Shown piece after piece: positions 1 to 10,306 of a DNA stretch of 12,232 nt. The stretch comes from Candidatus Hydrogenedentota bacterium (lineage in GTDB: Bacteria; Hydrogenedentota; Hydrogenedentia; Hydrogenedentales; SLHB01), in assembly GCA_045863335.1 (NCBI GenBank), contig BTVY01000049.1, positions 1 to 12,232 of the forward strand. The letters are read 5' to 3'. Position 1 is the first letter of the stretch; every line of letters begins with the position of its first letter. The translations under genes were made by a program, and so were the position numbers. The notes below the pieces were generated by a model that did not search any database, had not been told where the DNA came from, and saw only the letters and a list, made by a program, of their open reading frames with translations.

Positions 1-278
1 GCACCAAGCCTGTAACCAGTTGGAATTATTCAACTTTTAACCGGACACCAGTGATGCCCAATGTATATAATAGATTCCTTGTGTCGGTAATAAAATTCTC
101 TCCATTCTATAGACGCTCACAGCAAAAATTTCCCCCGAGGCAGATTTGATTCCATTTTGTCCCAACGACCCAATGTAATTGATATAACACACGGCCCTAC
201 GTGTAAAACTTGCCGCTTCCTGTGTCGAGACCTTTCCCGCGTAAGTGCGGCCCTCGCTCTAGGCTCCTGTTCAGTAGA

Positions 279-292
279 TCCAACATATTGGA
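279..292. promoter_or_regulatory. Palindrome TCCAA-CATA-TTGGA, candidate transcription factor site
   Basis: Perfect 5-bp inverted repeat with a 4-nt spacer, ending 14 nt upstream of the predicted -35 box. Confidence 0.4.
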
Positions 293-306
293 CATAATCT
301 GTCTCC

Positions 307-335
307 TTGCATAGATATAGGGCTTCTGCTATAAT
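307..335 (+). promoter_or_regulatory. Sigma70-type promoter for the five-gene operon
   Basis: TTGCAT (307-312), 17-nt spacer, perfect TATAAT (330-335), with extended -10 TG at 327-328. Predicted TSS about 342, about 110 nt before ATG 452. Confidence 0.7.
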
Positions 336-368
336 GGCCGCGATATATTGGGGATAAAATGCGGCCAT
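334..368. repeat. Inverted repeat ATGGCCGC-N19-GCGGCCAT overlapping the -10/TSS
   Basis: Perfect 8-bp arms at 334-341 and 361-368. Confidence 0.5.
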
Positions 369-369
369 G

Positions 370-387
370 GAGGGCACATGTCCCCTC
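370..387. promoter_or_regulatory. Near-perfect 18-bp palindrome GAGGGCACATGTCCCCTC in the 5' UTR (operator or hairpin)
   Basis: 16 of 18 positions match its own reverse complement. Confidence 0.4.
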
Positions 388-451: not shown

Positions 452-2146
452 ATGAAGACTCGAAGTGCACTCGTTCACTTCCCCGGATATCCTTTTGATA
501 TAAATGCACTTATGCCAAGTCGCCACCTCGCCGTAGCGGCTGGCAGTCTTCTTGACGCAGGGCACACGACACGGATTTTTGACTATGGGACCGTCACGTC
601 AGTTGAAGAACTCCTCGAAGGGAAGCTGAGTGACCTTGCGCGATCTGTAAGCGAGTCCATTTTAGCCGACCCGGGCCTGAATCCGCTTCAAACACTCCAC
701 ACCTTGTGGCACATCCGGGCCTCGGACCGGCTGCTGGCGCGCAAGCTTGGAGCGCAATGCGAGACCGTCGCGCAACGGCTCGCCCATCAGCCCGGTCTAC
801 ACTTCGCGGGTTTGATGATTCGGGCGGTTGAAGATCTTCGATATGCGGCTCAGATTGCCCGTCGGCTCAAGGATAGCCGGCCGAAGCTGCGGGTCATCGC
901 GTTTGGACCCTTGGTCGACTTGTACGGGGACTACATTGCGCGAGAGTATCTTGAGTTTGACTGTCTTTGCTTGACCGATGTGGAACAGAGCCTCGTTGGT
1001 TTCGCCGAAAAAATTGACGCGCCGGAGATGTGGGCGTCCGTACCGAACATCGCGCTCGCCAACGGCCACTACCCGAAAGGCGATTCGCAACGGGACAGTC
1101 TTGGGTTGGGGAATTACCCTCCACCGGTGTACGAACCGGACACCTATCCGGCACTACGCTCCGGACAGAAACTGCGACTATTTGAACTCGAAGACAACCG
1201 GGGTTCGGTCGCGACATTTGCAGATCCTCGGACCCACCACGAAATGGCAGTGCGAATGAAGCCCGTCTCGGCCGTCTGCAACGAGATCTGGCGTATTGCG
1301 ACGCTCTACGGCGCGCGAGCGTTCAGCCTTTGCGGGCCAGCCGCTACGGCATCGCACATGACCGCCGTCGGCCACGAACTGCTCCGCCGGGGAACCGACA
1401 TCGTATACGCACGGTCGAGTGCGTGCCTGGGCGTCGTGCCCGCCATGTTCAGCGTACTCCGTGCTTCCGGGTGCGAAGTCATGTCGTTCTCTGTTGACAC
1501 GGGCAGTCAACGTCTCCTCGACGATTTCTTCGGACGGGGCGTGACCGTTACGGAATTGGAAACGATGTTGCGCGCAAGCCGCAGCGCCGGCCTATATACG
1601 ATCGCACGATTTGTTTACCCCTGCCCGGCTGATGACTACCACACCAAGGCAGAGACAATCCGGCTTGTGGAGCGTACGCGACCCGACGCGGCAGCCGTGG
1701 ACGTCCCTCAGGTGCATCCCCAATCGGAATGGTTCGAGCGGAGTGCGCACTACGGTTTTCGTGTCCAGCGCGAGCGGGCGCTGGCGCGCGCGATGGCGAG
1801 CGCCCGGCGTTTTCCCTTAATGGACAACCAATGGCCTACCCTACCATTCAGCGTTGCAGGATTGAGTTCCAGCCAGGTAATAGGAGAGAATCGGAGCCTT
1901 GTGGAAGAGTTGGAGCAGCGAGGCGTGCTCGCGTCCGCACCGCACGATCTCGTGCGGCTTGCGCGGCTGGCCGGGTACGAGAACCGGGAACGGCAGTTTG
2001 TGGCTCGCGCGCAGCACGAACTTCTCAGCGGGGACACTTCCGGGGTCGCCACCTTGGTAGACCAGTTCAACGAGGCCGTCTGCGTTTCGGCAAAAGGTGT
2101 CGCCTTGAAGCCGTACGAGCCGTCGCGCATGGCAGTAGGGAATTGA
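452..2146 (+). CDS. B12-binding domain / radical SAM-fold protein with degenerate Fe-S motif (probable pseudoenzyme), 564 aa
   Basis: The N-terminal blocks LVHFPG..MPSRHLAVAAGSLLDAGHTTRIFD and IARRLKDSRPKLRVIAFGP resemble the cobalamin-binding domain of class B radical SAM proteins. The blocks ELEDNRG, RMKPVSAVCNEI, LRASGC..FSVDTGSQRLL and RFVYPCPADD follow radical SAM core order. No CxxxCxxC is present. Start moved from 359 to 452 because of the RBS and promoter position. Confidence 0.75.
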   Translation: MKTRSALVHFPGYPFDINALMPSRHLAVAAGSLLDAGHTTRIFDYGTVTSVEELLEGKLSDLARSVSESILADPGLNPLQTLHTLWHIRASDRLLARKLGAQCETVAQRLAHQPGLHFAGLMIRAVEDLRYAAQIARRLKDSRPKLRVIAFGPLVDLYGDYIAREYLEFDCLCLTDVEQSLVGFAEKIDAPEMWASVPNIALANGHYPKGDSQRDSLGLGNYPPPVYEPDTYPALRSGQKLRLFELEDNRGSVATFADPRTHHEMAVRMKPVSAVCNEIWRIATLYGARAFSLCGPAATASHMTAVGHELLRRGTDIVYARSSACLGVVPAMFSVLRASGCEVMSFSVDTGSQRLLDDFFGRGVTVTELETMLRASRSAGLYTIARFVYPCPADDYHTKAETIRLVERTRPDAAAVDVPQVHPQSEWFERSAHYGFRVQRERALARAMASARRFPLMDNQWPTLPFSVAGLSSSQVIGENRSLVEELEQRGVLASAPHDLVRLARLAGYENRERQFVARAQHELLSGDTSGVATLVDQFNEAVCVSAKGVALKPYEPSRMAVGN

Positions 2147-2149
2147 TGG

Positions 2150-3394
2150 ATGCATCCACGGACCGTTGTCATCACCGGATTTGGCATTCTCGCGTGCAAT
2201 GGCCTCGGACGGAAGGCGTTTTGGAACTCACTAAGAGACGGCAAATCCGGAATCCGCCGGATCGAGCGGTTCGATCCGGCGCCGTTTCCCTGCCAGATTG
2301 CGGGCGAGCTTTGGGGGTTTGACGCGCACGACTACCTGAAGAAGGCGGATGTGAAGCGGTGGCACCGCTACGTTCATCAGGCGGTTGCCAGCGCCAAGCT
2401 TGCGGCCGAGGACGCGCTCCTCGCCGAAGCCGGCTACGAGCCCGAGCGCGTTGCCGTGGGCTTCGGCACCAGCGCCGGCGCGCCGGATGAGTACTACATG
2501 AAGTACCGCGACTCCTTCGAGAATGGCGGCTGGAGCAAAATCGACAAACTGGCCTCGTCCACTTCATCCGGCCATGCAGCCACGGCCAATGTTTCGGCAG
2601 TACTGCAAGCCCGGGGCCCGGCCACGACATTGGCGAGCGGCTGCGCGACGGGACTCGACATCATCTCTTGGGGCGCTATGCAGATTCAGCGGGGACTGGC
2701 CGATGCGGCCATATGCGGCGCATCCGAGGCGCCGCTCACTGAATTGACCCTGGCGGCAACCTGTTCCCTCGGCATCCTTTCAAAACGAAACGACGAGCCC
2801 GCCAAGGCGATGCGCCCTTTTGACCGCGACAGCGACGGAATCGTATTGAGCGAAGGGGCCGGCGCGGTCATCCTGGAATCAGCCGAGCACGCCGAAGCGC
2901 GCGGCGCTCCAATCCTGGCGGAAGTCGCGGGGTATGGCGCGGCCGCGGAAGGAAACAACCCGCTCATCCTGGATAAGGACGGCCGCGCGTTGGCCCGAGC
3001 GATCCGCGCGGCGATTCAGGCGGCGGGCACCAGTGCCGAGGAAATTGAAGGCGCGGCCTGTCACGGGGTCTCGCTACCCGCGTACGACCGAAGCGAAACC
3101 AACGCGTTCAAAGATGCGCTGGGGAAGCACGCGTACCGGATCCCGATTACGGCATGCAAATCCATGACCGGACAACCCTATTCCGCGGGCGGGATCTTCA
3201 ACGTTGGAACCGCACTATTTACACTCACCACGGGCATCGTCCCCCCAACGATCAATCTCGACGAGCCGGATCCCGTATGTGATCTGGATTTCGTTCCAAA
3301 ACATGCGCGGTATAATGACGTACGGGCCATGCTCGTAACGGCCATGAGTTTTGGAGGCACCCACGGGGCGCTCATCATGCGAAAGAGGAACTGA
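2150..3394 (+). CDS. fabF: Beta-ketoacyl-ACP synthase II (FabF)-like ketosynthase, divergent
   Basis: VVITGFG, SGCATG (Cys165), RPFDRDSDGIVLSEGAG, CHG (His305), KSMTGQ (Lys337, Gln342), PPTINLDEPDP, SFGG. The length of 414 aa is typical of FabF. Probably a paralog rather than the housekeeping copy. Confidence 0.85.
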   Translation: MHPRTVVITGFGILACNGLGRKAFWNSLRDGKSGIRRIERFDPAPFPCQIAGELWGFDAHDYLKKADVKRWHRYVHQAVASAKLAAEDALLAEAGYEPERVAVGFGTSAGAPDEYYMKYRDSFENGGWSKIDKLASSTSSGHAATANVSAVLQARGPATTLASGCATGLDIISWGAMQIQRGLADAAICGASEAPLTELTLAATCSLGILSKRNDEPAKAMRPFDRDSDGIVLSEGAGAVILESAEHAEARGAPILAEVAGYGAAAEGNNPLILDKDGRALARAIRAAIQAAGTSAEEIEGAACHGVSLPAYDRSETNAFKDALGKHAYRIPITACKSMTGQPYSAGGIFNVGTALFTLTTGIVPPTINLDEPDPVCDLDFVPKHARYNDVRAMLVTAMSFGGTHGALIMRKRN

Positions 3395-5904
3395 TGCATG
3401 ACGGCGTAACGTCCTTCTTTCTGATTCTCTCTGCGGCTTCGTCGATTGTACTGGCCGCAATCGTCTTGGTGCGCAATCCCCGCCGTACAACCAACATCGC
3501 GTTCGGTCTGCTAAACCTCAACCTGGTGCTTTGGACGCTTGGGGTCTTTTCCATTACGCACACCACCGACCCCAATACGACCGTGTTCTGCATTCGCCTG
3601 ACCTTCGCCGTGTCTTGTTTCCTCCCCGCCACGTTCTACTTGTTTATCGGTTTTTTCCCCCGGGGCGTTTTCGACGGGATCAAGAGTCTATTCGCATTTT
3701 ACTGCGTAAGCGGCGTCGTCATGAGCGTCCTTGCGATCGTACCGGGGCCCTGGTATCTGGACGATGTCGCCGTCTCGGAAACCGGCCTTCCACTTCCGGA
3801 CTATGGCCCCGTGTTTCAGGCGTTTTTCATCATCTGCGCGTTTACGTTTATCGTCCTGCACGTCAATCTGTTCCGAAAACTCCGCGGCGCCTCCGGAATC
3901 GCGCGCCGCCAGATTCAACACGTGCTGCTGGGGATATTCGCTACGACGTTATTTGCATTCTCGACCAACATCATGGGGCCTTTGCTCGGCGTCCGGTCGC
4001 TGGAGGAATACGGGCCTGTCTTCGTCATGCTCATGACAGCCGCCTTCGCCTACGCAATGGTGCGTTACCACCTCATGGACATCTGGGTGATCTTCTCGAC
4101 GACGACGGTCTACGCAGTGTCAACGGTCGTCGTCATTCTGGTGTTTTTAAGCACCATTTCGTTGGTGCACTGGTCCCTGAGGTCGCGCAGTGGCGCCAGT
4201 GAAGTCATCTCGACAATTCTGGCAGCAATCGTGATCGTGTTAATCCTGGAACCGCTTAAGGAGCGGGTCCAGCTCTTGCTGAACCGAACCGTGTTAAAAC
4301 GGCACTACGACGTCAACAAGTTGCTCGCGCGCACGAGCCGGCATGCCGCCGAGTGCGTCGTGCTGGACGAACTTCTCCGGACGATCTGCGAAGATATCCG
4401 GAATACCGTTGGCGCCAGCGTCGTGCGCGCACTCCTGATTGACGAACGAGACAACAACACCCTCGTCACGGAGTACTCCAGCCGGGGGAAAGAAGCGGGC
4501 AAAAGGGATTCCGACTACACGCCCTTATTGGAGTACCTGCGGCAGCACAACGAACCGCTGTTGCTCGAGGCTATCGTTCATTCGCGAGTCACCCCCGAAC
4601 GAGCCCAACTCGCGGAGATGCTCGCGGAGTTGGACGCGTACCTTTGCCTGCCCCTCAAGCGAACCACCGGGCTCGTTGGTGTGCTTGCCTTAGGGCAAAA
4701 GCTCTCGCGCGACATCTATTCCTCCGACGACGTGGTGGCGTTTACCGCGTTGGCGACACCGCTCACCACGGCAATCGAAAACGCCCGGCTCTACAAGAAA
4801 CTCGACGAGGCGAACCAGCACCGCGCGAGAATCCTCAGCAATATGCGGGGCGGTGTCGTCGCAGTGGATACGGAAGGGCTCGTAACAACGGTCAATGCCG
4901 GCGCTATCGAGATTCTTGGCCCCATCGAAATCGGGCAGCACATGAGCGCGATTACGCCGCAAGTCGCACGGATCCTCCAGCGGACGCTGGAGGACGGTCG
5001 CGCCATCAGTGACTACGAGACGATTCTCGTGGGGCCGGGCGCGGAACGGATCCCCGTGGTCATGTCGTCGTCGTGCCTTCAGGTTGGCGACGGAGACATC
5101 ACCGGGTCCATGGTCGTCTTGTACAACCTCACGCAGGTCAAACGGCTGGAGCAGAACGTCCAGCGCGCCCATCGGCTCTCATCCGTCGGCACCCTGGCCG
5201 CCGGAATGGCGCATGAAATCAAGAACCCCCTCGTGTCCATCAAGACCTTCAGCCAACTGCTTCTGGAACGATACGATGACCCGGACTTTCGCAATACGTT
5301 CACGGATATTGTCCCCCACGAGGTCGAGCGGATCGACTCCATCGTAACCCGCCTGCTCCACTTCGCCCGGCCCCGCCCGGCGAGTTTTGCGCATCACAAC
5401 CTACGTGCTATTATCGAGGAGGTTCTCGTACTGGTAGAGAACCAGATGCGGAAGGGGAACATCACCGTTGAGACCGACTTTCCCGGCCCCGAAGTGGGGG
5501 TGTATGGCGACGAGCAACTTCTGCACCAGGTTTTCCTCAACCTGGTGCTCAACGCCATCGACGCCATGAAAGACATGGGAACGGGGGCCAAGTTGGTCAT
5601 TCGCGCCGAATACGGTCGCATGGTGCTCCGGCGGAACGGTCACGAACCGCAGCCGGACGCGGACTGCGTAAAGGTCTCCCTTTCCGACTCGGGTGTTGGA
5701 ATCAGCTCGGAAAGCCTGGAGCGGATTTTCACCCCGTTCTACACGACGAAAGACGACGGCACTGGATTGGGGTTGGCTGTTGTCCACGGCATCGTGACTG
5801 AACACGGCGGCTCCATCTATGTCGAGAGCGATCCTGGGGAGGGGAGTACCTTCGTGATTACGCTGCCGTCGGCGAGGGTTATGTCAGGGGTCAAGGGCGA
5901 TTAG
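3394..5904 (+). CDS. Membrane sensor histidine kinase (multi-TM N-terminus, GAF, PAS, HisKA, HATPase_c)
   Basis: About 290 aa hydrophobic N-terminus resembling HisKA_7TM-type sensors. GAF ends in AIENARLY; PAS has GGVVAVD..VN. H-box AHEIKNPL (His607), N-box QVFLNLVLNAIDAM, G1 DSGVGI, F-box IFTPFYTTK, G2 GTGLGL. TGATG overlap with the upstream gene. Confidence 0.93.
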   Translation: MHDGVTSFFLILSAASSIVLAAIVLVRNPRRTTNIAFGLLNLNLVLWTLGVFSITHTTDPNTTVFCIRLTFAVSCFLPATFYLFIGFFPRGVFDGIKSLFAFYCVSGVVMSVLAIVPGPWYLDDVAVSETGLPLPDYGPVFQAFFIICAFTFIVLHVNLFRKLRGASGIARRQIQHVLLGIFATTLFAFSTNIMGPLLGVRSLEEYGPVFVMLMTAAFAYAMVRYHLMDIWVIFSTTTVYAVSTVVVILVFLSTISLVHWSLRSRSGASEVISTILAAIVIVLILEPLKERVQLLLNRTVLKRHYDVNKLLARTSRHAAECVVLDELLRTICEDIRNTVGASVVRALLIDERDNNTLVTEYSSRGKEAGKRDSDYTPLLEYLRQHNEPLLLEAIVHSRVTPERAQLAEMLAELDAYLCLPLKRTTGLVGVLALGQKLSRDIYSSDDVVAFTALATPLTTAIENARLYKKLDEANQHRARILSNMRGGVVAVDTEGLVTTVNAGAIEILGPIEIGQHMSAITPQVARILQRTLEDGRAISDYETILVGPGAERIPVVMSSSCLQVGDGDITGSMVVLYNLTQVKRLEQNVQRAHRLSSVGTLAAGMAHEIKNPLVSIKTFSQLLLERYDDPDFRNTFTDIVPHEVERIDSIVTRLLHFARPRPASFAHHNLRAIIEEVLVLVENQMRKGNITVETDFPGPEVGVYGDEQLLHQVFLNLVLNAIDAMKDMGTGAKLVIRAEYGRMVLRRNGHEPQPDADCVKVSLSDSGVGISSESLERIFTPFYTTKDDGTGLGLAVVHGIVTEHGGSIYVESDPGEGSTFVITLPSARVMSGVKGD

Positions 5905-5906
5905 GC

Positions 5907-7868
5907 ATGCACGTGGTCTTGGTCATAGCAGAAGAGCGCGCGATTCGAGAGGCCATCAGCGCCTCCCTGCGTGACACGTGCCATACGGTCTTCGAATCCG
6001 AGGTGGACGCGGCGCTCCGCAGGCTCATCTCGATCCACGCCGATGCGATCATTCTCGATGACACGCCGCGACTGGGCGTGACCGCACTCACCCAGGTCCG
6101 TAAAGCGGCGCCTCATTTGCCCCTGATCGCGCTGTCGGCGCGCGGGGATTCGGAAACCCGCGCGGGTTTTATGCTGGCAGGCGCCGCGGCATGTCTCCCA
6201 AAACCATTCTCGTACGAGGAACTTCTCGGCGCCCTGAACCAGATCATCGATACTCAGGAAGTCTCGCTCGAGTCCGTACCCGTGCAGGTGAGCGAACCTT
6301 CCAACACGGCTATCATCAACCAGTACCAGACGGCCATGCGGTGGATGAACCGCTTCATGTCGAGCATGGAAGATACCGGACGCCTCGAGTACGTCCTGGC
6401 GGACGCTCTTGTCGATGTATTCGACCCGTCCCGGTGCGCGGTGTTGCTCGATCGGGACGGCGCGGTTCGCGTCGCGGCAAGCCACGGCGTTGCTGCCGGG
6501 GTGGCGCAAACCCTGCGCCTCGAGTATGCGTCCGGGCTGATGCGCTGGTTTGAAGTCAACCCATATCTCATCGACAAAGCGAGTGCTCGATCAGCGTCCG
6601 CGGCCAAGGAATTGCACCTCCTGGGAGCCCGCCTGGGCGTACCCGTGTTGTGCGGTGGCCGCGTTATGGGCACGCTCGTCATTGGCGACAAAGCCTCGGG
6701 GCGTGAATACAGCGCAGAAGAGCGCGAACTGCTCACCACCATGGCCCGGGCGGCCGGAACGGCCCTGGAGAATGCGGGGCTACATCATGACCTGGCAGGA
6801 CAGCAAGGGCATCTGACGACGGTTCTGGAGCATCTCGCCTCCGGCGTGGTCGTGGTGGGCGGCGACAAAACGATTCGCCTCCTGAACCAGAGCGCCGAAC
6901 GCATCCTCCAGATGCGCGCCGTCGATCTGATCGGGCGAAGCGTCCAGAAACTGGGCTCGGGGTTTGCCGACATCGTGCTGCGCGTTTTGATGAACCGCAA
7001 ACCGTTGCTTCGGCAAGAGGTCCGCGACGCGGCCATCAATGCGACCCTGGGGTTGAGCGCCGCGCCCCTCGGCGATGAAGGCGTGGTCGTCATTTTCTCG
7101 GCCTTGCCGAAACGCCAGCGCGCCAAGGACGACGTCGAATACAGCCCCTACTGGGAATATCTGTCGGCGCGGGTCGCTCAGGAAATCAAGAACCCGCTGG
7201 TGGCGATCAACACCTTTGCCCAACTGTTGCCGCGCAAGTATGAATCGGAGGACTTCCGGGAACAGTTTGGCGAAGTCATGCAGAAGGAAGTGGATCGCAT
7301 CAACCGCGTCGTGGAAACGCTCTTCGACTTCGCGCGCCATCCGCGGCTTGTACTGCAGACTTCCAGCGTGAACGAGGTCGTTGCCAGCGTGCTGGACACG
7401 TTCGAAGATGAGGCAAAGAATCGCGGCATCACGATCGAACGCAAACTCGACTCCAATCTGCCCAATGCCAATCTTGATCCGTTGTTTTTCTCGCAGGCGA
7501 TCCACAACGTCGTTCAGAACGCCTTCGACGCCATGCCGACCGGCGGCAAGCTCAAGGTGGTGAGCCGCCCGAGAGACGAAGGCAGTGAAATTGTCATCGC
7601 GGACACGGGCTCTGGAATCCCCGAGCAGGTCGCGCCGCTGGTGTTCTTGCCCTTCTTTGGAACCCGCGAATATGGGATGGGTCTGGGGCTTACCGTGGCC
7701 AACCGCATTGCAAAACAACACCATGGCGAGCTAAAACTACTGTCAAGCGATTCGGGAAGCGTGTTCGCCTTTCGAATTCCTCGCGCCGACGGACAACAAG
7801 CGCCGCCGGAAACCGCAGATGAAATCAGGCAAGACCAGAACCTCCCCCTGGCATCGGGCATCGTGTAG
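5907..7868 (+). CDS. Soluble hybrid REC-GAF-PAS-histidine kinase-like protein lacking the phosphoacceptor His
   Basis: Receiver with IILDD (Asp51), ALSA and KPF. GAF ends in ALENAGLH; PAS has SGVVVVG..LNQSAERIL. H-box reads AQEIKNPL. N-box NVVQNAFDAM, DTGSGI, VFLPFF and GMGLGL are present. No TM segment is evident. Confidence 0.88.
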   Translation: MHVVLVIAEERAIREAISASLRDTCHTVFESEVDAALRRLISIHADAIILDDTPRLGVTALTQVRKAAPHLPLIALSARGDSETRAGFMLAGAAACLPKPFSYEELLGALNQIIDTQEVSLESVPVQVSEPSNTAIINQYQTAMRWMNRFMSSMEDTGRLEYVLADALVDVFDPSRCAVLLDRDGAVRVAASHGVAAGVAQTLRLEYASGLMRWFEVNPYLIDKASARSASAAKELHLLGARLGVPVLCGGRVMGTLVIGDKASGREYSAEERELLTTMARAAGTALENAGLHHDLAGQQGHLTTVLEHLASGVVVVGGDKTIRLLNQSAERILQMRAVDLIGRSVQKLGSGFADIVLRVLMNRKPLLRQEVRDAAINATLGLSAAPLGDEGVVVIFSALPKRQRAKDDVEYSPYWEYLSARVAQEIKNPLVAINTFAQLLPRKYESEDFREQFGEVMQKEVDRINRVVETLFDFARHPRLVLQTSSVNEVVASVLDTFEDEAKNRGITIERKLDSNLPNANLDPLFFSQAIHNVVQNAFDAMPTGGKLKVVSRPRDEGSEIVIADTGSGIPEQVAPLVFLPFFGTREYGMGLGLTVANRIAKQHHGELKLLSSDSGSVFAFRIPRADGQQAPPETADEIRQDQNLPLASGIV

Positions 7869-9244
7869 TGAAAACCATCCTCTGTGTTGACGACGAACTG
7901 AGCGTACGCGAAGCGTACCGCCTGATCCTTTCCGATCAGTACCGCGTTTTGCTGGCCCAGGACGGTCCCACCGCCCTGAAGATGATGAAAGAGAATCACG
8001 TCGATCTCGTCTTGCTCGACATGATCATGCCCAACATGGGCGGCATGGAAGTGCTCGACGAGATCGTCCGTTCGGACGGGGTCGTCCCCGTAATCGTCGT
8101 TACCGCGATCAAGTCCGTATCGACCGCCGTGAACGCCATTAAGCACGGCGCCAAAGAATATATCATCAAACCCTTCGACGTGGATGAGATCCTGCTGATG
8201 GCCGAGAAAACGCTCGCGGCCAACCAGAAGGAGCATGAACTTTTCATGCGCCGCAAGGCGGATGCGTCCGGGTTCGACGCCATCATTGGCGACAGCCCCG
8301 CGCTGCGTCAGACCATCACGCTCGCCCAACGGGCCGCCCAAGTGGATTCGACGGTCCTGATCACGGGTGAAAGTGGAACGGGCAAGGACCTCATGGCGCG
8401 GGCCATTCACACCGGCGGCATCCGCGCCAAGAATCCCTTCGTGGCCGTATCGTGCTGCGCCATCCCGGAGCAGCTCGTCGAAAGCGAACTGTTCGGTCAC
8501 GAGAAGGGTTCGTTTACGGGAGCATCCGAGAAGCGCGTCGGCAAAATGCAGGTCGCCGACCGCGGCACGCTTTTCCTGGACGAAATCGGCGAGATGCCCC
8601 TTGAAGCCCAGGCCAAACTATTGCGGGTCCTGCAGGGCGGCCAGTTCTACCCCGTCGGTAGTACCAAGGTGATTGAAGTCGACATCCGCTTCATCTGTGC
8701 GACGAACCGGGATCTCCGGGAGGCGGTCAAGCAGGGAATTTTCCGCGAGGACCTCTTCTACCGCGTAAACGTCCTTCACGTTGAAATGCCGGCGCTACGA
8801 AACCGGCGCGAAGACATTCCCGCGTTGGTGAATCACTTCGTGGCCAAACACCGGGCGCGCGTGAATGCCCAGGTAAAACGCTTCGCGCCCGACGCCATGT
8901 CGCTCATGGTGTCCTACGATTGGCCCGGCAACATCCGCGAGTTGGAGAACATGGTCGAGCGCATTCTCGTGATGAACAACACCGTCGAAGAGTTACGCAC
9001 CGAGAATCTGGCGGGAATCATGACAGCGTCAACCCCGCAGGACGCATCCGGCCAGGAAGATTACGACGGACTTCCTCTCGAAGAGGCCACCAGACGGCTG
9101 GAACGCCGGATGATTCTTCGCGCGCTCGAGCAATGCGAGAATGTACAGTCCCGGGCCGCGGAAATCCTCGGCACGACCCGCCGGATACTCAAATATAAAA
9201 TGGATCAGTTAGGCATCGAATCGGCCGAGCGCGAAGTCGGCTGA
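7868..9244 (+). CDS. Sigma54-dependent response regulator (NtrC/AtoC family; REC-AAA+-Fis HTH)
   Basis: REC has VDDE, LLDMIMP, VTA and KPF. Walker A GESGTGKD, ESELFGHEKGSFTGA, Walker B LFLDEI, FREDLFYR, WPGNIRELEN, and C-terminal HTH QSRAAEILG. GTG start overlaps the upstream TAG. Confidence 0.95.
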   Translation: MKTILCVDDELSVREAYRLILSDQYRVLLAQDGPTALKMMKENHVDLVLLDMIMPNMGGMEVLDEIVRSDGVVPVIVVTAIKSVSTAVNAIKHGAKEYIIKPFDVDEILLMAEKTLAANQKEHELFMRRKADASGFDAIIGDSPALRQTITLAQRAAQVDSTVLITGESGTGKDLMARAIHTGGIRAKNPFVAVSCCAIPEQLVESELFGHEKGSFTGASEKRVGKMQVADRGTLFLDEIGEMPLEAQAKLLRVLQGGQFYPVGSTKVIEVDIRFICATNRDLREAVKQGIFREDLFYRVNVLHVEMPALRNRREDIPALVNHFVAKHRARVNAQVKRFAPDAMSLMVSYDWPGNIRELENMVERILVMNNTVEELRTENLAGIMTASTPQDASGQEDYDGLPLEEATRRLERRMILRALEQCENVQSRAAEILGTTRRILKYKMDQLGIESAEREVG

Positions 9245-9349
9245 CGTTTGGCGCCTGCCCATATTAAACTGCCGGCGAGTTACGCTGCACGCGTACACCT
9301 CCGGCCATGATTCCAACTTGCGCAACAACAAGAGAAGGAGTGTGTGTTG

Positions 9350-10246
9350 ATGGATGTCACCGTGGTGGGCTCGATCGCCCTGGATACTGTGGAAACGCCG
9401 TCCGGCTTGAATCAGGAAGGACTCGGCGGCGCTGCGACGTTCTTTTCATTGGCCGCGGCGAACTATGCCCCGGTGCATCTCGTGGGCGTCGTTGGGGAAG
9501 ACTTCCCGGAAGAGCACGTGCGGCTTCTGGAATCCAAGAAGATCGTTCTCGACGGGCTTGAGCGCGCGCAAGGCAAGACCTTCCGCTGGACGGGCAAGTA
9601 TCACGAGGACGTGAACAACCGAGACACGCTGGAAACACAACTCAACGTATTTGAGCATTTCCATCCGAAGCTGCCGGCAGCGGCCTGCGAAGCGCCCTTC
9701 CTCTTCTTGGGCAACATCCATCCGAGCCTGCAGATCGAGGTCCTGGAACAAGCCAAACCGAAGTTCGTCGGACTCGACACGATGAACCTGTGGATCAACA
9801 TCGCCCAGGACGAGTTGCGTGAGGTGCTCAAACGGGTCGACGTGATCATCATCAACGATTCGGAGGTGCGCGATTTGACCGGAGAGACCAATCTGGTCAA
9901 AGGCGCCAAAGCGGTCAAGGCGCTGGGCCCGCGCATCGTGGTCATCAAGAAGGGCGAGCACGGCTGCTTGCTCTACAGCGACCAAGACATTTTCTCCGCA
10001 CCGGCCTATCCGATCGAAGAAGTGGTCGATCCGACCGGCGCGGGCGATACGTTTGCCGGCGGGTTCCTGGGCCATTTGGCGGGCACGGGCAAGACCGACG
10101 CGGCGACTCTGCGGCAGGCGGTAATTCATGGAAGTGTGGTGGCGTCGTTCACCTGCGAGAAGTTTGGACCCGACCGCCTCGCGGAAATCGGCCTCGACGA
10201 CATCACGTCGCGTTTCGCGGAGTTCAAGAAACTAGCCGAATTCTGA
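9350..10246 (+). CDS. PfkB/ribokinase-family carbohydrate or nucleoside kinase
   Basis: VVGSIALD, LGGAATF, GVVGEDF, NDSE, IKKGEHG and the anion-hole signature DPTGAGDTFAGG. AAGGAG RBS at 9335-9340 favours ATG 9350 (or TTG 9347) over GTG 9344. Confidence 0.92.
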   Translation: MDVTVVGSIALDTVETPSGLNQEGLGGAATFFSLAAANYAPVHLVGVVGEDFPEEHVRLLESKKIVLDGLERAQGKTFRWTGKYHEDVNNRDTLETQLNVFEHFHPKLPAAACEAPFLFLGNIHPSLQIEVLEQAKPKFVGLDTMNLWINIAQDELREVLKRVDVIIINDSEVRDLTGETNLVKGAKAVKALGPRIVVIKKGEHGCLLYSDQDIFSAPAYPIEEVVDPTGAGDTFAGGFLGHLAGTGKTDAATLRQAVIHGSVVASFTCEKFGPDRLAEIGLDDITSRFAEFKKLAEF

Positions 10247-10271: not shown

Positions 10272-10306
10272 AGTGCCGCGCTCGCCGAGCGCGGCACTCT
10301 TTATTT
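10272..10306 (+). terminator. Rho-independent terminator between convergent genes
   Basis: 12-bp perfect stem AGTGCCGCGCTC/GAGCGCGGCACT with a GCC loop, followed by CTTTATTT. Possibly bidirectional. Confidence 0.85.

Follow-up and report, generated by a model that had tools for sequence, protein, structure and literature searches.

The window analysed here is a 12,232-nucleotide stretch of DNA from a Candidatus Hydrogenedentota bacterium (contig BTVY01000049.1 of assembly GCA_045863335.1), and its positions 452-9244 are occupied by five open reading frames (ORFs) running in one direction, which are one real and strongly conserved unit in this uncultured phylum. They encode, in order, a protein related to cobalamin-type radical S-adenosylmethionine (SAM) enzymes (RS), a ketosynthase-like protein (KS), a seven-helix membrane histidine kinase (HK1), a kinase-like protein without the phosphorylatable His (HK2) and a sigma-54 enhancer-binding protein (EBP). 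In kind, it is a two-component relay that ends in a sigma-54 activator and has an enzyme linked to it. We read it as an acyl- or lipid-linked two-component system whose product would be detected by HK1, and give this reading a probability of about 0.4. Judged by sequence comparison, RS (cysteine motif, Pfam cut-off), KS (FabF cut-off, catalytic triad) and HK2 (His of the H box) lack defining features of the named families with which they were compared.

Conservation of the five-gene unit

Forty neighbourhoods from related Hydrogenedentota genomes were anchored on RS, and the five proteins were mapped on them by tblastn, with EBP rechecked at a looser threshold. The complete order RS-KS-HK1-HK2-EBP was found in 25 of the 40 neighbourhoods; six more, cut by the end of a contig or locus, agree as far as they are visible, and one is too short to judge. 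As a check independent of RS, KS and HK2 were searched in all 135 genomes of the phylum examined, giving KS orthologues in 82, HK2 orthologues in 83 and both in 79 (KS only in three and HK2 only in four). Of these 79 genomes, 62 have the two genes on one contig at a distance of 3.3-4.8 kb and the other 17 have them on different contigs; no genome has them widely separated on a single contig. The cassette is present in one copy per genome in 82 of the 135 genomes, its order is retained across nine KS-holding families of the phylum, and whole families are without KS and HK2 (0 of 23 genomes in f11 and 0 of 10 in f13). The linkage of KS and HK2 is plain despite the kinship of the genomes.

A preliminary description of this DNA had put forward one unit of coupled genes in which three proteins have key residues replaced. 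The junctions are as it had given them: a 3-nucleotide gap between RS and KS (AAT TGA tgg ATG), a TGATG overlap between KS and HK1, a 2-nucleotide gap between HK1 and HK2 (TAG gc ATG) and a TAGTG overlap between HK2 and EBP. The counts above bear out one conserved unit, KS being joined to the kinase pair in 62 genomes. The three replacements (the RS cysteines, KS His to Gln342 and HK2 His to Gln) were confirmed, and close relatives share the Gln of KS (33 of 33) and of HK2 (29 of 29), so that these substitutions are co-conserved and not recent decay or an assembly error. The description withstands the refuting test that it had set for itself. The neighbourhood comparison that had been proposed shows the order and the KS and HK2 substitutions to go together, but the loss of the RS cysteines to be variable (intact in 11 of 41 orthologue rows).

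The view that the five genes are without a functional link, being neighbours by descent only or carrying substitutions that are recent decay or assembly error, is already largely refuted, and we regard it as very improbable. It could draw on the within-phylum counts, which all come from related genomes, and on RS, the fastest-evolving of the five genes (28-64% identity vs 55-85% for the others). Against it, the order is kept across the nine families, all five genes give dN/dS values of 0.02-0.17 when close pairs are compared, the pairing of KS with a kinase recurs in loci that are only 26-44% identical, and these distant loci still have overlapping codons at the junctions. The same sequence is present in contigs of runs from 14 sludge or bioreactor metagenome studies, and one DNA run covers all 30 of 30 bins, by which an assembly error is excluded. 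Going by the alignments, the KS and HK2 substitutions are fixed features and not decay. A run labelled as RNA gave contigs over 29 of the 30 bins, one of them spanning the RS/KS junction; its depth profile is like that of the DNA run, carry-over of DNA is possible, and the contigs cannot prove a single transcript. Small shares in runs X19 and X20 were left aside.

Residue states and folds of the five proteins

RS (452-2146, + strand; 564 aa) reaches no Pfam family at threshold. The Radical_SAM family (PF04055) scores 12.9 bits vs a gathering cut-off of 29.5, and the B12-radical-SAM models BzaD (E 2e-12) and ApyD (E 1e-11) of NCBIfam match weakly, both far under their cut-offs. An AlphaFold model built with 38 sequences (predicted local distance difference test, pLDDT, 89.4; predicted template-modelling score, pTM, 0.89) has TsrM, AprD4, MgmA, OxsB, CysS and TokK as its best solved matches (Foldseek E 5e-15 to 1e-9, template-modelling score, TM, 0.5-0.7), and the ESM Atlas model of RS has a TM of 0.90 to a 553-member cluster of canonical B12/radical-SAM proteins. 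The models thus predict the fold of class B (cobalamin-dependent) radical SAM enzymes, with an N-terminal Rossmann-like domain and a partial TIM barrel. Going by entry titles, the CysS and TokK structures contain pantetheine-linked substrates. AprD4 carries a cobalamin-type domain without using cobalamin, and no sequence motif is diagnostic for cobalamin or SAM binding in class B enzymes. RS has the whole-chain fold in common with this class but lacks the CX3CX2C motif, has an additional C-terminal AVGN tail and stays under every family cut-off.

All three cysteines of the motif are missing in the window's RS when it is aligned to cysteine-bearing orthologues (Ser, a gap and Asp in their places), the sequence being NRGSVAT-FADP where the orthologues have SRGCxxxCxxCP. 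Across 41 orthologue rows the motif is intact in 11, partial in two and lost in 28. On a quick maximum-likelihood tree, for which the careful tree search is unfinished, at least five changes of cysteine state are forced by well-supported branches, and parsimony gives nine. Since regain of CX3CX2C is implausible, the pattern is read as repeated loss, and the cysteines appear to have been lost at least five separate times. The cysteine-less copies are not pseudogenes, because their dN/dS in close pairs is low (0.078, 0.087, 0.128 and 0.172, with 0.03-0.05 for KS in these pairs) and points to purifying selection; RS also retains a GSQRLL stretch and other invariant residues common to the cysteine-bearing members.

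At the C-terminus of RS (window 2132-2143), a near-invariant A-V-G-N tail follows a conserved Arg, within a stretch modelled as disordered (pLDDT <50, residues 549-564). Because the tail is also kept in genomes without KS and the relay, its partner, if any, would not be KS or the relay proteins. By the pattern used, all 37 of 37 loci of the RS family are in Hydrogenedentota records, some of which are titled as Nitrospiraceae or Nitrospirales, and distant members of the family stand without KS or relay. The loci L068, L072, L073, L079, L081, L090 and L091 are titled 'uncultured Nitrospiraceae/Nitrospirales bacterium' and carry a Hydrogenedentota-type RS, five of them with the cassette. These titles are probably mislabelled, and several of the records are the same contigs that genome data place in the order of the window's organism.

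KS (2150-3394, + strand; 414 aa) is a FabF-derived ketosynthase-like protein with Cys165-His305-Lys337-Gln342 at its catalytic sites. Both ketoacyl-synthase domains are over the Pfam cut-off (PF00109 with 134.5 bits and PF02801 with 82.7 bits), and on the FabF model TIGR03150 the protein scores 347.3 bits vs a curated cut-off of 493.75, the genome's own FabF reaching 582.5 bits. With this FabF it has 35% identity, reading HGVSLPAYD for HGTSTKHND and KSMTGQ for KSMTGH, so that both Thr of HGTST are replaced by Val and Leu, and the Cys-His-His triad is absent because its second His is Gln342. KS therefore has the fold, both Pfam domains, Cys, first His, Lys and gatekeeper Phe in common with FabF/KAS II, but differs in the TIGR03150 score, the second His and the HGVSL stretch. 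Gatekeeper Phe, Cys, first His and Lys are invariant among KS orthologues (Cys and first His in 34 of 34 rows), Gln342 is found in all 33 rows covering the site, and a further set of loci, taken from named records, gives C-H-K-Q in 27 of 27 KS matches covering all four sites. The 150 nearest representatives at 50% identity include 12 with C-H-K-Q and 11 with C-H-K-N; the nearest have the HG-x-x-LP-x-YD stretch too, and two with C-H-K-Q are source-named Thermodesulfobacteriota and Gemmatimonadales. Other condensing enzymes with the thiolase fold (FabH, chalcone synthase) work with a Cys-His-Asn triad.

KS is the most constrained of the five genes (dN/dS 0.03-0.06 in close pairs). The word 'degenerate' that the preliminary description had used for the enzymes is too strong for KS, in which Cys, the first His, Lys and Phe are invariant. 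RS is not strictly bound to the relay, four genomes having it without KS or HK2, and some cassette copies keep CX3CX2C. It had also been said that no acyl carrier protein (ACP), acyltransferase or reductase is present, and a Pfam scan of eight window ORFs agrees in finding no such domain. A complex prediction for KS and RS, in which both proteins were entered with alignments, had a score of 0.00 and the verdict 'no answer', which counts neither way. Elsewhere in the window's genome, two very long ORFs of 2291 and 2518 aa contain ketosynthase domains (G000:C18:67499-68563 and G000:C1:211299-212369) and are possibly polyketide or polyunsaturated-fatty-acid synthases.

HK1 (3394-5904, + strand; 836 aa) has the architecture HisKA_7TM-GAF-PAS-HisKA-HATPase and a canonical H box, AHEIKNPL, with the His in 33 of 33 rows and with conserved N, G1 and G2 boxes. 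HK2 (5907-7868, + strand; 653 aa) has a receiver (REC) followed by GAF, PAS, HisKA and HATPase domains, and its H box is AQEIKNPL; the alignment of 33 rows consists of 29 true orthologues, two truncated rows and two that are actually HK1, and AQE(I/V)KNP with Gln is found in all 29 true orthologues. Since Gln replaces His, HK2 cannot autophosphorylate, and DivL is a known pseudokinase of this kind, a HisKA protein without the phosphorylatable His. HK2 has kept its ATP-binding boxes (N, G1, G2) and its Asn at H+4, and its receiver still has Asp and Lys. The Gln is a derived state of the Hydrogenedentota form, because outgroup counterparts retain His (SHELKNPL, SHEIRNPL). HK1 and HK2 are most alike in the stretch for dimerization and histidine phosphotransfer (DHp), with 29 of 65 residues vs about 28% overall, which fits a shared response-regulator partner or heterodimerisation. 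According to PMC3510030, Asn or Thr at H+4 is a phosphatase requirement in HisKA kinases, and CrdS-H371A is able to dephosphorylate CrdA~P, with a half-life of 2.6 min vs 53.5 min, whereas N375A is not. CrdS-H371A thus resembles HK2 in that a DHp and catalytic ATP-binding module without the phosphorylatable His still acts on a response regulator; in HK2 the His has been replaced in nature, by a Gln that is fixed, and receiver, GAF and PAS domains are added.

Two side observations concern the kinases. The HK2 match holds one or two in-frame stops, mostly TGA, in G022, G029, G086, G031, G096, G092 and G028; errors in sequencing, recoding or a recent inactivation might account for them. In the locus L136 (3166-4713), an unusual ORF of 515 aa, between the 7TM kinase and a normal EBP, fuses a sigma-54-interaction AAA+ domain and its lid to HisKA.

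EBP (7868-9244, + strand; 458 aa, GTG start) has the complete architecture of an NtrC-type enhancer-binding regulator, REC-AAA+ (sigma-54 interaction)-HTH_8, with Pfam scores of 97, 236 and 39 bits for REC, Sigma54_activat and HTH_8, respectively, and with GSFTGA and Walker motifs. It reaches no named equivalog cut-off. HK1 and EBP are generic superfamily members under every such cut-off, as in the scores for AtoC (459 vs 714), PEP_resp_reg (TIGR02915; 378 vs 502.6) and PrsK (TIGR02916; 113.8 vs 300). The best-scoring named kinase/activator families are AtoS/AtoC, NtrB/NtrC and PEP-CTERM PrsK/PrsR, from which HK1 differs in its membrane domain. The window's genome contains rpoN and 27 strong sigma-54 activator domains, and because of this number the targets of EBP could not be singled out. 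A search for the sigma-54 site TGGCAC-N5-TTGCW with up to three mismatches gave 42 matches vs 46.8 expected, and a scan for GG-N10-GC up to 500 nucleotides upstream of RS showed no consistent site in 41 rows. An autoregulated sigma-54 operon is thus unsupported, and since no sigma-54 promoter was found 5' of the operon, the targets of EBP would lie elsewhere in the genome.

These results bear on a view in which HK1 senses the physical state of the membrane, like DesK, without any ligand, and KS and RS are co-transcribed effectors of lipid remodelling. The seven-helix membrane domain of HK1 has almost no exposed loops, and the separate true FabF of the genome makes KS an extra paralogue, available for a special lipid. 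Such effectors would also suit the roles of the two families, since FabF-type enzymes determine the length of acyl chains and radical SAM enzymes of class B methylate unactivated carbons. We consider this view unlikely, since KS and RS, with no sigma-54 promoter at the operon, are not visibly targets of EBP, repeated loss of radical-SAM cysteines and variable catalytic His residues are not what one expects of an effector enzyme, and the clustering of flanking genes finds no other lipid genes conserved nearby.

The KS-kinase pair in other lineages and the flanks of the unit

Metagenome contigs were scanned with an alignment of outgroup KS proteins, and 80 loci were kept, 43 of them with downstream room (42 with at least 2.5 kb, and L142 with 1.3 kb). 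A HisKA_7TM kinase is encoded directly behind KS in nine of the 43 loci, one of the nine being a Hydrogenedentota orthologue. In the other loci with this pair, KS and the kinase are 36-44% and 26-32% identical to the window proteins, respectively. All seven loci whose KS is without the His-His pair have the kinase (C-Y-K-N in three, C-H-K-N in one and C-H-K-Q in three), and the 34 loci without a kinase behind KS are all C-H-K-H. The stop codon of KS and the start codon of the kinase overlap in L107, L109, L114, L120 and L167. The C-Y-K-N type, which is source-named Chthoniobacterales/Verrucomicrobiota, has KS and kinase on consecutive accessions and belongs to a cluster of 147 members. These comparisons suggest that the conserved core is the pair of KS and 7TM kinase, older than the cassette and extending beyond Hydrogenedentota, the cross-phylum claim covering nine metagenome loci and a single lineage with a taxon name.

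The same order as in the window is found in L167, where a B12-radical-SAM gene of the canonical type, with both Pfam domains and reading ESRGCPNSCHFC, is followed by KS, the 7TM kinase, a REC-PAS-HisKA protein and an EBP. The ORFs upstream of KS in L152, L120 and L142 have no similarity to the RS profile. Further genes of L167 are rpoN, a REC-HisKA-HATPase hybrid and an outer-membrane channel of the FadL/TodX type for hydrophobic compounds on the upstream side (1119-4693) and a REC-GAF-HD-GYP protein on the downstream side (13660-15060).

At the 5' end of the unit in the window, RS was taken to start at 452, and not at the ATG 359 of a longer ORF, because an AAGGAG ribosome-binding site (441-446, + strand) stands 6 nucleotides 5' of ATG 452 and the orthologues begin with MKTRS. 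The single promoter claimed earlier can be read by eye as a possible sigma-70 promoter (TTGCAT-17 nt-TATAAT, 307-335, + strand), but it is absent from the list of the consensus scan. The contig begins at the start of the window, the first 400 bases have a G+C content of 0.52 vs about 0.60, and an ORF of 86 aa at 117-377 (- strand) is without a Pfam family.

At the 3' end, EBP is followed after 99 nucleotides by a gene of a PfkB-family kinase (9344-10246, + strand), a frequent sixth neighbour whose membership of the unit is uncertain, then by a strong terminator-like hairpin (10272-10298, + strand; 12 pairs, 9 of them G-C) and a convergent gamma-glutamyltranspeptidase gene. The PfkB gene is downstream in 17 of the 40 neighbourhoods, its product matches PDB 3KD6 (E 7e-98), and relatives have 60-90% identity. 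It was the only recurrent flanking gene when flanks were clustered across neighbourhoods, a heparinase-like ORF of 600 aa recurring in five loci only. Its position is after EBP in 15 loci, after HK1 in L047 and directly after RS in L031, a locus that has neither KS nor the relay. Since RS stands directly beside PfkB in L031, these two may be the older neighbours, with the KS-relay block placed between them. In L024 (11933-12831), the PfkB orthologue of G004 was matched in two pieces in different frames, which suggests a frameshift or assembly error.

Proposed signalling and comparison with known systems

What the analysis shows is a conserved unit, with the residue states and the folds of its proteins. 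In the lipid-linked system that we prefer, the cassette would have been built round an older pair, a FabF-derived KS translationally coupled to a HisKA_7TM-GAF-PAS kinase. KS would draw acyl-ACP from housekeeping fatty-acid synthesis and, by means of Cys165, His305 and Lys337 together with the Gln, would make or transfer a hydrophobic acyl product, which an ancestral cobalamin-type radical SAM partner may have tailored. The seven-helix domain of HK1 would read this product in the membrane, and HK1 would autophosphorylate and pass phosphate to the receivers of EBP and HK2. HK2, in which the ATP-binding boxes and the E-x-x-N phosphatase motif are kept, would be a receiver-gated brake on EBP, as a phosphatase or a sink; we read it in this way because of the kept Asn at H+4, the precedent of CrdS-H371A and the DHp likeness to HK1. 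EBP would drive sigma-54 promoters at other places in the genome, and in the lineage of the window an RS without iron-sulfur cysteines would persist as a non-radical accessory protein. We infer what the ligand is, which way phosphate flows and that HK2 is a brake.

A lipid signal is favoured because an acyl-thioester enzyme is encoded just before a polytopic kinase, which is the layout of lipid-signal systems. In CqsA/CqsS, LqsA/LqsS and RpfF/RpfC, the gene of an enzyme that uses acyl-CoA or acyl-ACP stands next to that of a polytopic kinase without a large periplasmic domain. Those pairs differ from the cassette in that their enzymes are pyridoxal-phosphate-dependent or of the crotonase type and their membrane domains are others, and to our knowledge none of them has a KAS II-type protein or a HisKA_7TM domain. 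The likeness to PhcB-PhcS-PhcR of Ralstonia, to which the preliminary description had pointed, is fair as a matter of layout: according to PMC8578825, phcBSRQ has a signal-synthesis gene, a sensor kinase and a receiver-kinase protein in one operon, PhcR being a receiver and histidine-kinase protein without a DNA-binding domain, and the signal is fatty-acid derived. The likeness is in layout only; PhcB is a methyltransferase, the output is the LysR-type PhcA and there is no radical-SAM-like gene, whereas a domain scan of the window finds no methyltransferase or LysR gene. By analogy, G043, which retains RS-HK1-HK2-EBP with KS cleanly absent, resembles a solo receptor of a diffusible signal, and it mildly favours a diffusible product.

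Several points weigh against a lipid signal made by this unit. The domain scan finds no thioesterase, exporter or ACP within the cassette, and a fold search with the model of the 7TM domain gave only weak, generic GPCR-like seven-helix matches (E about 2e-3), without a clue to the ligand. There is no sigma-54 promoter before the operon and hence no sign of positive feedback of the quorum-sensing type, and the Chthoniobacterales-type locus has no sigma-54 activator. Among the 40 neighbourhoods, two have RS-KS-HK1-HK2 without an adjacent EBP, two are without KS (RS-HK1-HK2-EBP in G043 and RS-HK1 in G018), and four have RS alone with room for more. The four genomes with RS alone (93-100% complete) have no KS orthologue (FabF at 33-37% identity or nothing) and, by these queries, no HK2 orthologue. 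The genomes are kin, so that the counts are not independent events and overstate independence. Finally, the catalytic His positions of KS differ by lineage (H/H, H/Q, H/N and Y/N), and Cys and Lys never do; this drift appears odd for a conserved decarboxylative condensation, and a role in acyl binding or acyl transfer would fit at least as well.

The main rival to a lipid signal, to which we give somewhat less weight, is that KS and RS make nothing and are ligand-binding 'trigger' (pseudo)enzymes, which signal to the GAF and PAS domains of HK1 and HK2 by direct contact. KS would then report the state of acyl-ACP or lipid synthesis through acylation of its Cys, and RS would report SAM, a nucleoside or cobalamin. 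Such a role would suit, at least as well as a lipid signal does, a KS whose Cys and Lys are invariant while the His for decarboxylative condensation drift and whose HGTST Thr pair is replaced, and likewise an RS that has lost its cysteines at least five times and is still full length, under purifying selection and with GSQRLL kept. The codon overlap of KS and HK1 in several distant lineages suits production in fixed proportion, and genes for a carrier protein or a release enzyme are absent from the vicinity. However, G043 has the whole relay without KS and four genomes have RS without the relay, so neither protein is an obligate subunit, and contact of KS or RS with the kinases is still hypothetical. 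Moreover, Gln or Asn in the triad of KS need not mean inactivity, as the Cys-His-Asn enzymes illustrate, and some cassettes keep the canonical CX3CX2C (11 of 41 rows). The rest of the weight we leave to something not considered here.

Returning to the lipid signal, a wider and more tentative reading, which we think rather unlikely in its entirety, would join these results. FabF-derived KS and HisKA_7TM kinases would together make up a class of autoinducer-like, lipid-signal systems that is undescribed and spans phyla, its members being found in uncultured Hydrogenedentota and Verrucomicrobiota and in relatives of these. The losses of the radical-SAM cysteines would be changes of signal 'dialect', relays without KS would be eavesdroppers, and the cysteine-less RS and the Gln kinase would be pseudoenzymes recruited as regulatory subunits. 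In the literature covered, which leaves subscription journals outside, we found no published description of a ketosynthase-HisKA_7TM pairing or of the cassette.

Hydrogenedentota have almost no cultured members, and the organisms are abundant in sludge and bioreactors. The cassette offers three linked natural experiments in pseudoenzyme evolution, namely the RS fold, the Cys-His-Gln KS and the Gln kinase. HisKA_7TM is a common and uncharacterised sensor domain, which PMC5847659 lists as a sensor domain of unknown input, and its link with KS is a first testable lead to what this domain detects. If a lipid signal is made, signalling between cells or on the state of lipids would gain a new class with this cassette.

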